Below, piece by piece: positions 37,375 through 37,400 of a DNA stretch of 64,000 nt; positions within the stretch are counted from its first letter, which is position 1, and every line of letters starts with the position of its first letter. Under the pieces are notes generated by a model. The model made no database searches. It was given only the letters and a program-made list of their open reading frames with translations, and was not told the origin of the DNA. Source of the stretch: a phage; sequence record PZ386971.1; one strand, given 5' to 3'. The translations under genes and the position numbers were made by a program.

Positions 37375-37400
37375 GATCGGGGTATAATTACCCCGCTTTG
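37375..37400 (+). terminator. hairpin GGGGTATAATTACCCC (TATAAT in loop) followed by GCTTTG
   Basis: Palindrome centred on TATAAT; weak T tract. Confidence 0.4.

Follow-up and report, generated by a model that had tools for sequence, protein, structure and literature searches.

The 64,000-nucleotide stretch of phage sequence record PZ386971.1 analysed here (the window) belongs to a ViI-like myovirus of the Ackermannviridae. The window shares 98.8% identity with Enterobacter phage fGh-Ecl02, from which its gene map was transferred, and, over the 36-40 kb segment, 94% with Shigella phage Ag3. Most of its genes lie on the plus strand and 3,881 nt (6%) of it are intergenic. Upstream of the gene encoding the single-stranded DNA-binding protein gp32 (ATG 37463), the plus strand carries the hairpin CGGGGUA-UAAU-UACCCCG at 37378..37395 (folding energy −12.7 kcal/mol, z −3.69). 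The hexamer TATAAT (37383-37388) lies at its apex and a TTCAAT box lies ahead of it at 37365-37370. Hairpins of the same design, each built around a sequence resembling the −10 element of a sigma-70 promoter, recur in the short intergenic regions of the window and are probably composite cassettes of a promoter and a stem-loop, of the type known as PeSLs. In what follows, sites are named by the first position of the hairpin or of its core, energies are in kcal/mol, and hairpin z-scores compare RNA folding energy with dinucleotide shuffles. The comparison sample comprised 36 loci from related IMG/VR genomes (UvsX 69-99% identical; labelled L0xx), and conservation of the hexamers was judged on the orthologous regions of 15-21 related Ackermannviridae loci.

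The original prediction had pointed to five palindromes centred on TATAAT or TATGAT. All five sequences were found, four of them one base away from where they had been placed. GGGGTATGATTACCCC lies at 1277-1292, as given, and at 1836-1851 (not from 1837); GGGGTATAATTACCCC lies at 37379-37394 (not from 37378), GCTGCTATAATAGCAGC at 42375-42391 and GGGTTATAATAGC...TATAACCC at 52807-52833. Each of these sites is intergenic, on the coding strand, shortly past a stop codon and ahead of the next gene. The first is the plus-strand hairpin UGGGCGGGGUA-UGAU-UACCCCGUCUA at 1272..1297 (core CGGGGTATGATTACCCCG at 1276-1293; −18.8, z −5.05), with TATGAT at 1281-1286, a TTCTATAA box at 1261-1268 and the ATG of the ORFan 1320-1826 located 33 nt past the hexamer. 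A second plus-strand copy of this cassette lies at 1833..1854 (core 1835-1852, TATGAT 1840-1845; −16.8, z −4.63), upstream of gene 1879-2256. At 42369..42397, the plus-strand hairpin GAAGGGGCUGCUA-UAA-UAGCAGCUCCUUU, followed by TTTTGTTTATT (−19.7, z −4.44), has the canonical shape of an intrinsic terminator. This site also carries the extended −10 sequence TGCTATAAT at 42377-42385 and TTCAAA at 42359-42364, ahead of ATG 42416. The remaining one is a long plus-strand hairpin, GUC.CCAGGGUUAUA-(11 nt)-UAUAACCCUGG.GAC at 52800..52840 (−19.1, z −5.34), in which TATAAT (52811-52816) extends from the top of the 5' arm into the start of the loop. Next comes the DNA ligase gene (ATG 52846), whose Shine-Dalgarno sequence GGAG (52835-52838) lies within the 3' arm.

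Reading all intergenic regions of the window added at least four hairpins of the same design that the original prediction did not contain. Three are on the plus strand. The hairpin GGGCGGCUU-AUCAUA-AAGCUGCCC, followed by TTTCATTTG, at 5192..5215 (−16.4, z −6.04) carries TATCAT at 5200-5205, with TCAATAA at 5181-5187 and ATG 5237. The hairpin ACCUGUUCCGAG-GGAUAA-UUCG(U)GAACGGGU at 40211..40241 (−15.5, z −3.25) carries GATAAT at 40224-40229, with a TTCTATAA box at 40204-40211 and ATG 40267. The third, CGGGUCAUAGGGU-AUA-AUUCUAUGAUCUG at 48606..48634 (core TCATAG/CTATGA 48610-48630; −14.2, z −5.85), carries TATAAT at 48618-48623, with a TTCAATAA box at 48596-48603 and ATG 48656. On the minus strand, GAAG..AAGGGGGAGUA-UAUA-CUUCCCUU..CG at 62661..62688 (−14.0, z −2.53) carries TATACT (62668-62673) and lies upstream of the minus-strand gene ending at 62639, with the inverted box TTATTGAA 12 nt upstream. 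A related layout was found on the plus strand at 26048..26080 (CGCCGCC-TTCAATCTACGA-GGGCGGCG; −19.8, z −4.70), where a TTCAAT box lies in the loop, TATAAT (26075-26080) directly follows the stem and nrdA (ATG 26112) is downstream. A weaker plus-strand candidate, CCCAT-ATAATAC-ATGGG at 51160..51176 (TATAAT 51164-51169; −5.2), has the same geometry of box and hexamer as the other sites (TTCAATAA box 51144-51151, ATG 51198). Its fold is not significant (z −1.35) and it was not counted as a hairpin. As RNA, the eight strong plus-strand hairpins with a hexamer at the apex have folding energies of −12.7 to −19.7 kcal/mol and z-scores of −3.3 to −6.0.

Random expectation does not explain the hexamers. 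In the motif counts against shuffled controls that the original prediction had proposed as a check, TATAAT occurs 30 times in the window, compared with 15.1±4.2 in shuffles, and the 16-mer GGGGTATGATTACCCC/GGGGTATAATTACCCC has three matches in the window against none in 100 shuffles. More than half of the plus-strand TATAAT copies (10/19) fall within the intergenic 6% of the window (binomial 4e-8). A −10-like hexamer placed in the loop of a hairpin with a minimum free energy of −12 kcal/mol or lower accounts for 12/77 intergenic and 7/313 coding cases (Fisher 2.5e-5). A looser hairpin search (5-bp stems, G·U pairs allowed) was too permissive, and the energy-based tests were used instead.

The placement of the cassettes is also regular. 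The intergenic regions that contain them are 52-105 nt long, and the hairpins lie 6-27 nt past a stop codon and 28-74 nt before an ATG. At all sites they are on the coding strand, between the stop codon and the Shine-Dalgarno sequence and ATG of the next gene. The distance from the end of the hexamer to the start codon is 28-37 nt at nearly all sites and 74 nt at gp32. A TTCWATAA (or TTCAAT/TCAATAA) box lies 12±2 nt upstream of the hexamer. TTCWATAA has 21 matches in the window against 3.4±1.7 expected, and 14/17 plus-strand copies are intergenic. These 21 sites are spread over 589-62693 (for example 1261, 6438, 23524, 40204, 41390, 48596, 49368 and 51144). Nearly all of them are intergenic coding-strand copies, and −10 hexamers follow 10-16 nt downstream. 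The box also occurs just upstream of, or inside, classical TTTACW-N17 promoters. Its inverted form TTATTGAA takes the same position at 52793 and at ~62680 (minus strand), and is also found near 3193 and 23503. The box could be a factor-binding site or an UP-like element; a literature search on TTCWATAA box sequences returned nothing relevant.

Whether written TATAAT, TATGAT, TATCAT or GATAAT, the sigma-70-like −10 is near-invariant in orthologues. The hexamer varies little or not at all ahead of gp32, genes 40267, 42416 and 48656, and the ligase gene, and the box is conserved too. TATAAT upstream of gp32 is identical in 15/16 distinct orthologous sequences while the stem around it varies (GGGGGTA/TACCCCC, GCGGGAT/ATCCCGC). 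GATAAT at 40211 and TATAAT at 52800 do not change in any orthologue. At site 1276, TATGAT and the stem are retained in L028, L030, L035 and L037 with G·U variants, and the Ag3 orthologue, ggcgaggtatgattgcctcgcc, has a compensatory G-C to A-T change. Orthologues of 5192 keep a hairpin with another stem (GGCGGTT/AACCGCC) and TATTAT. Most hexamers have a G at −14, and 42377-42385 is a full TGnTATAAT. In one gp32 clade (L012-L020 and L024) the region reads CGCAGTATAATTACACCG: the arms are unpaired and TATAAT and the box are unchanged, so the hexamer is not conserved merely as a hairpin loop. The original prediction had suspected more than simple termination at these hairpins. This expectation is borne out by a hexamer that is conserved independently of the hairpin, also in sequences that have lost it, by its promoter-like distance to the start codon and by the conserved box upstream.

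The pairing of the arms has also been maintained. At 48606, three pairs are altered on both sides (TCATAG/CTATGA to TCGTAG/CTACGA, and to ATCATGAGG/CTTCATGAT); 92.3% of the cells are paired, compared with at most 48% when the partners are slid, and 0/500 shuffles reach the score. At 40211, a C-G pair has become G-C in one clade, 90.8% of the cells are paired and 3/500 shuffles reach the score. At 52800, 92.9% of the cells are paired over 11 distinct sequences, and one pair occurs as A-U, as G·U and as G-C. Around the same TATAAT at 42369 and 37378, the stems of the two most distant relatives, L022 and L023, differ in sequence and still pair. Among the non-Watson-Crick stem cells at seven sites, 77 are G·U and 11 are A·C. 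At 8/9 sites the sense RNA folds more stably than the antisense RNA (sums −147 vs −111 kcal/mol; −14.2 vs −4.2 at 48606), and hairpin energies calculated with DNA parameters are small (−3.5 to −10.8 kcal/mol). Rfam and tRNA scans gave no matches. In L030, the loop of site 2 (within 3534-3589, orthologous to 1816-1871 of the window) is exactly inverted (GGGGTAATCATACCCC) and the stem is kept, which shows that a hairpin can persist with a damaged hexamer. Such an apex inversion (TATGATTA to TAATCATA), in sequences that otherwise hardly differ, is what a hairpin-mediated loop flip (template switching) leaves behind. The promoter and hairpin constraints overlap, and each can persist without the other.

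Promoters combined with stem-loops have been described in T4-type phages (RB49/phi1, PST/T4 and nt-1/KVP40) under the name PeSLs, for promoter-early stem-loops (Arbiol et al., 2010, PMC2839356; Comeau et al., 2014, PMC4122927). A PeSL consists of a sigma-70-like promoter and a poly-G/poly-C stem-loop with G-T pairs, which mostly lies between the −35 element and the −10 or overlaps the −10 box (PMC2839356). The cassettes of the window likewise place a putative intergenic promoter together with a stable stem-loop of G-run and C-run arms (GGGG...CCCC) that overlaps the −10 and contains G-T (in RNA, G·U) pairs, and they end in a Shine-Dalgarno sequence and ATG on the 3' side. Other cassettes in the window have a −35 (570-597, 941-969, 3205-3233, 16363-16391 and 41405-41433), and a TTTACW-N17-TAYWAT promoter beside a terminator is found in other cassettes here as in the T4/PST PeSLs. 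Several differences were also noted. The phage belongs to the Ackermannviridae and is not T4-type (Tevenvirinae). In the subset with the −10 inside the hairpin, the TTCWATAA box 12±2 nt upstream takes the place of a −35 at 17 bp. Several cassettes are located in conserved core blocks of replication and nucleotide metabolism (gp32, ligase), not only in hyperplastic regions. Finally, terminator and promoter activity of PeSLs were both shown by lacZ fusions (PMC2839356), whereas the evidence on the cassettes here consists of their sequences, stability, conservation, covariation and indels, from which promoter activity, termination and transcript ends are predicted. A literature search found no account of PeSL-like elements in Ackermannviridae.

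PeSLs flank ORFan indels, and recombination between copies explains the gain and loss of the ORFans (PMC2839356; PMC4122927). The same arrangement is seen in the window, where copies border ORFans that some of a set of near-identical phages have and others lack, and a single chimeric cassette is left behind. A 50-nt direct repeat (1274-1323 and 1833-1882, 88% identity) lies on either side of ORFan 1320-1826, which has no Pfam match. This gene is absent in L025 and L026, and in its place stands a single chimeric cassette that joins site 1's left flank to site 2's right flank. Similarly, the open reading frame 662-886 lies between terminator-plus-promoter repeats (563-617 and 920-974), and fGh-Ecl02 lacks it and has one chimeric module in its place. 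At both loci, recombination between the flanking copies explains the indels. ORFan indels relative to fGh-Ecl02 were also found at 16333-16738 and 30096-30454, bounded by a repeated translation-start cassette, TTGAA..AGGAACTATATCATG.

Copies of the translation-start cassette, TTGAA(N)AGGAACTATAYCATGA, lie at 1299-1327, 1858-1886, 5225-5244, 16419-16447, 16717-16745, 30182-30210 and 30433-30461. They stand ahead of several small ORFans and at the edges of indels relative to fGh-Ecl02, and they indicate that two ORFs truly start at ATG 16440 and ATG 30203 and not as the longer TTG-started frames. Five small-gene insertions relative to fGh-Ecl02 (541-1021, 16333-16738, 28394-28759, 30096-30454 and 51539-52846) are all located at intergenic regulatory modules. 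The product of 51557-52165 has a PspA/IM30 domain (E 5e-11). A high-copy mobile repeat (REP/MITE-like) was considered and rejected; the exact 16-mer has only 1-3 copies per Ackermannviridae genome in an IMG/VR scan, and its other IMG/VR matches are scattered and, by rough estimate, about as many as expected by chance.

The hairpins have the features of intrinsic terminators in having a GC-rich stem of at least 5 bp and a short loop just past a stop codon. The U tract is less regular. When at least five T were required in the 8 nt immediately after the stem, 2/8 strong hairpins passed (5192 and 42369), in agreement with the remark of the original prediction that only some of the hairpins are followed by T tracts. 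Partial T tracts follow the hairpins at 1276 and 1835 (TCTATTTG) and at 37378 (CTTTGTAG), and there is none at 40211, 48606 or 52800. Termination or attenuation is likely at some sites, and at the others 3'-end protection or another RNA-level role is as likely.

How could one short sequence carry both functions? On the PeSL-type reading, which we hold to be probable, the AT-rich apex would serve at the DNA level as the −10 of a sigma-70-type promoter for the downstream gene. In RNA arriving from further upstream, the G-rich and C-rich arms would fold into a stable hairpin just past the stop codon. Given a U tract, the hairpin would terminate or attenuate read-through at 5192 and 42369, and more weakly at 1276, 1835 and 37378. 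Elsewhere it may protect the 3' end, and at the ligase gene it would also cover the Shine-Dalgarno sequence. The predicted start lies about 7 nt past the hexamer, which at every site places it within the 3' arm or at the end of that arm. Transcripts that start there would be unable to form the hairpin, which would be carried by read-through transcripts only. The repeated cassettes would also act as recombination points for the gain and loss of ORFans. Such an overlapping promoter and terminator/attenuator cassette is a better reading than either suggestion of the original prediction, a shared DNA-binding site or a structured RNA-processing signal. Nothing points to a dedicated processing signal, and the Rfam scan gave no match.

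Several observations weigh against the PeSL-type reading. A literature search found no transcript data for this phage or for any Ackermannviridae. In a sigma-70 consensus scan, no hairpin-embedded hexamer had a canonical −35 at 16-18 bp. In place of the −35 expected about 17 bp upstream in a PeSL, the nearest element is TTCWAT at 12-16 bp, and sigma-70 RNA polymerase alone may therefore use the embedded hexamers poorly. The failure of the T tract makes termination doubtful at 40211, 48606 and 52800. TATNATA is nearly self-complementary and AT-rich stem tops are often −10-like. The loop flip in L030 disrupts the hexamer of site 2, so the promoter is dispensable at that site. The pairing score at 52800 was not better than in shuffles, and covariation is modest overall among sequences that are related. 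The sigma-70 scan itself found 23 promoter-like sites, compared with ~21 in shuffles, and missed all hairpin sites; being at shuffle level and blind to these sites, it neither supports nor refutes them.

The simplest alternative is that the hairpins are plain rho-independent terminators or 3'-end hairpins, with a −10 likeness that is incidental to AT-rich stem tops (TA-TAAT-TA, TAT-N-ATA). The Ag3 genome paper lists the orthologous hairpins simply as rho-independent terminators (Anany et al., 2011, Table S2): 37378 corresponds to Torf075, 42369 to Torf069, 5192 to Torf131, 62661 to Torf031 and 26048 to Torf095, and Torf138 is likewise among the Ag3 terminators orthologous to hairpins of the window. 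The same table gives the 42369 element as an "early promoter" as well (Porf067), with coordinates overlapping Torf069 and no comment on the overlap. The −10 at the apex of the other hairpins is not discussed there. A position 6-27 nt past the upstream stop codon agrees with plain terminators, and an RNA role agrees with the bias towards the sense strand and with the G·U pairs. The inverted loop of L030 is tolerated, and the plus-strand TATCAT at 5200 is TATGAT on the minus strand. Plain terminators, however, leave it unexplained that a whole gp32 clade keeps TATAAT between unpaired arms, that the distance from hexamer to ATG is tightly clustered (28-37 nt) and that a conserved TTCWATAA box lies at a fixed distance upstream. 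Three of the hairpins are entirely without a T tract, and the other terminators of the window have GNRA, UUCG or other loops that are not −10-like. We therefore regard plain termination as an unlikely account of the cassettes.

A non-terminator role at the RNA level, in which the hairpin stabilises 3' ends or blocks read-through translation, has a precedent in the T4 genes e, soc, 49 and I-TevI. There, a promoter lies inside a hairpin that sequesters the ribosome-binding site of the read-through transcript, and RNA started from this promoter can be translated (PMC3014915). The cassettes resemble the gene e type in having a promoter-like element in the 5' arm or loop, so that cassette-started transcripts would lack the hairpin. 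In the ligase cassette (52800-52840), the 3' arm holds GGAG and the loop holds the predicted start, and the endolysin hairpin (24255-24285) is arranged in the same way around a late-type TAAATA. The absence of a T tract at 40211, 48606 and 52800 also favours such a role. At the other seven sites (1276, 1835, 5192, 37378, 40211, 42369 and 48606), however, the Shine-Dalgarno sequence is at least 10 nt past the stem and unpaired, most hairpins here stopping short of it, unlike those of the gene e type. In addition, the promoter embedded in T4 is a late one (TATAAATA), whereas most sites here have a sigma-70-type TATAAT, and the T tracts at 5192 and 42369 are good. As a general explanation this role is quite improbable.

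The endolysin hairpin belongs with a group of late-type motifs in hairpins. Ahead of the putative endolysin gene (ATG 24290), a 13-bp hairpin, AAAUACCUCUGCA/UGUGGAGGUAUUU in 24251-24291 (−16.2, z −4.5), has a late-promoter-like TTTAAATA in its 5' arm and the Shine-Dalgarno sequence GGAGG in its 3' arm. This is the layout of T4 lysozyme gene e, in which early read-through is untranslatable and late transcripts start inside the hairpin. In Ag3, the orthologue is listed as terminator Torf098 (Table S2). CTAAATA/TAAATA also occurs in hairpins at 14986-15013, 20807-20832 and 35701-35745. Two of these hairpins resemble terminators with T tracts and hold the late-type motif in the loop (z −5.6 and −3.1); in a 45-nt palindrome, GTAAATAGCCCATA...TATGGGCTATTTAC (z −4.6), the motif occupies both arms. 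Late promoters, too, seem to follow the promoter-in-hairpin design.

Two further alternatives act at the DNA level, and the RNA evidence speaks against both. The palindromes might be operators for a dimeric DNA-binding protein of phage or host, given that the window has three copies of the 16-mer GGGGTATRATTACCCC and related genomes have 1-3 each, and that the phage encodes an HU-like protein at 6518-6796. A shared DNA-binding site, the first suggestion of the original prediction, is nevertheless very unlikely: the arms differ wholly between sites (CGGGGTA, GCTGCTA, TCATAG, CCGTTC, CCAGGGTTATA), compensatory and G·U changes within sites preserve pairing and not sequence, the centre is asymmetric (TAAT or TGAT), and the strongly favoured sense fold points to RNA. 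Hairpin promoters of the N4 type, which are used by the phage virion RNA polymerase, have a 5-7 bp stem and a 3-nt purine-centred loop. Extrusion of the cassettes as cruciforms, with the −10 single-stranded in the loop as for the N4 enzyme or at Frpo, could draw on the apical −10 at 8-9 sites without a −35 and on the L030 inversion, which shows that a DNA hairpin can form at least during replication; but it is very unlikely in view of the small DNA-parameter energies, the G·T pairs and sense/antisense asymmetry that favour RNA, a hexamer partly paired in the stem at several sites, a gp32 promoter element that persists without arms, and loops that are AT-rich and 3-11 nt long where those of N4 have 3 nt. 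Neither the window nor the matching regions of fGh-Ecl02 have an annotated RNA polymerase gene.

The MotA-dependent middle promoters of T4 have the same geometry as the embedded hexamers, with a −10, a box near −30, about 12 bp between them and no −35. The box is TTCWATAA here and differs from the TGCTT Mot box of T4. The PmSLs (promoter-middle stem-loops) of Vibrio phage nt-1 are similarly built, with a −10 and a box near −30 about 12 bp apart, no −35 and a stem-loop (PMC4122927). ViI-like phages have been reported without MotA and AsiA homologues (PMC3184105), and a Pfam scan of window proteins, ORFan cassettes included, gave no MotA- or AsiA-like match. Only about eight sigma-70 consensus promoters are given in each of the Ag3 and CBA120 genome papers, and the CBA120 paper states that many more must exist. 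A late-promoter variant (TAATTACCCC, against the late consensus CTAAATAcCcc) was rejected for the hairpin hexamers. TAAATA precedes structural genes at the divergent regions 9408, 39446 and 60516, unlike the hairpin hexamers, which precede genes of replication and nucleotide metabolism. Do the hairpin-embedded elements then form a promoter class of their own? It is conceivable, although doubtful at present, that they are a pre-replicative (middle-type) class of ViI-like phages, with a box near −30, G at −14 and no −35. Such a class would depend on a phage-encoded activator or sigma-remodelling factor analogous to MotA/AsiA, and the hairpin would switch expression from early read-through to the promoter.

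Some neighbouring features may be mentioned. The product of gene 6518-6796, a "transcription factor" by annotation, is a DNA-binding protein of the HU family (PF00216, E 6e-29). It recalls TF1 of SPO1, an HU homologue that binds hydroxymethyluracil DNA. ViI-like phages carry thymidine modifications derived from hydroxymethyluracil. In the 5' untranslated region of gp32 (37425-37445), the whole family shares the conserved leader element AATAGCCCTGAGGGGCGG, which has no Rfam match; in L022 and L023, ATAGCC-N5-GGCGGA is duplicated upstream of gp32. By analogy with T4 gene 32 mRNA, AATAGCCCTGAGGGGCGG could be an autoregulatory operator. A conserved small hairpin, GGGATA-ACCCTA-TATCCC, lies at 2706-2723, directly before the Shine-Dalgarno sequence GAGGTG of gene 2733. 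Its sequence is GGGATAATCCATATCCC in several relatives, which have GATAAT at the apex; the fold is not significant (z −1.4).

For annotation, neither "promoter" nor "terminator" alone suits such elements. Neither early nor middle promoters have so far been defined for the ViI-like phages (Ackermannviridae), and a conserved −10 at the apex together with the upstream box provides candidate start sites for their genes of replication and nucleotide metabolism. The PeSL idea of one cassette that insulates, drives and shuffles genes would thus be extended to a second family of large myoviruses, one that is much used for biocontrol.

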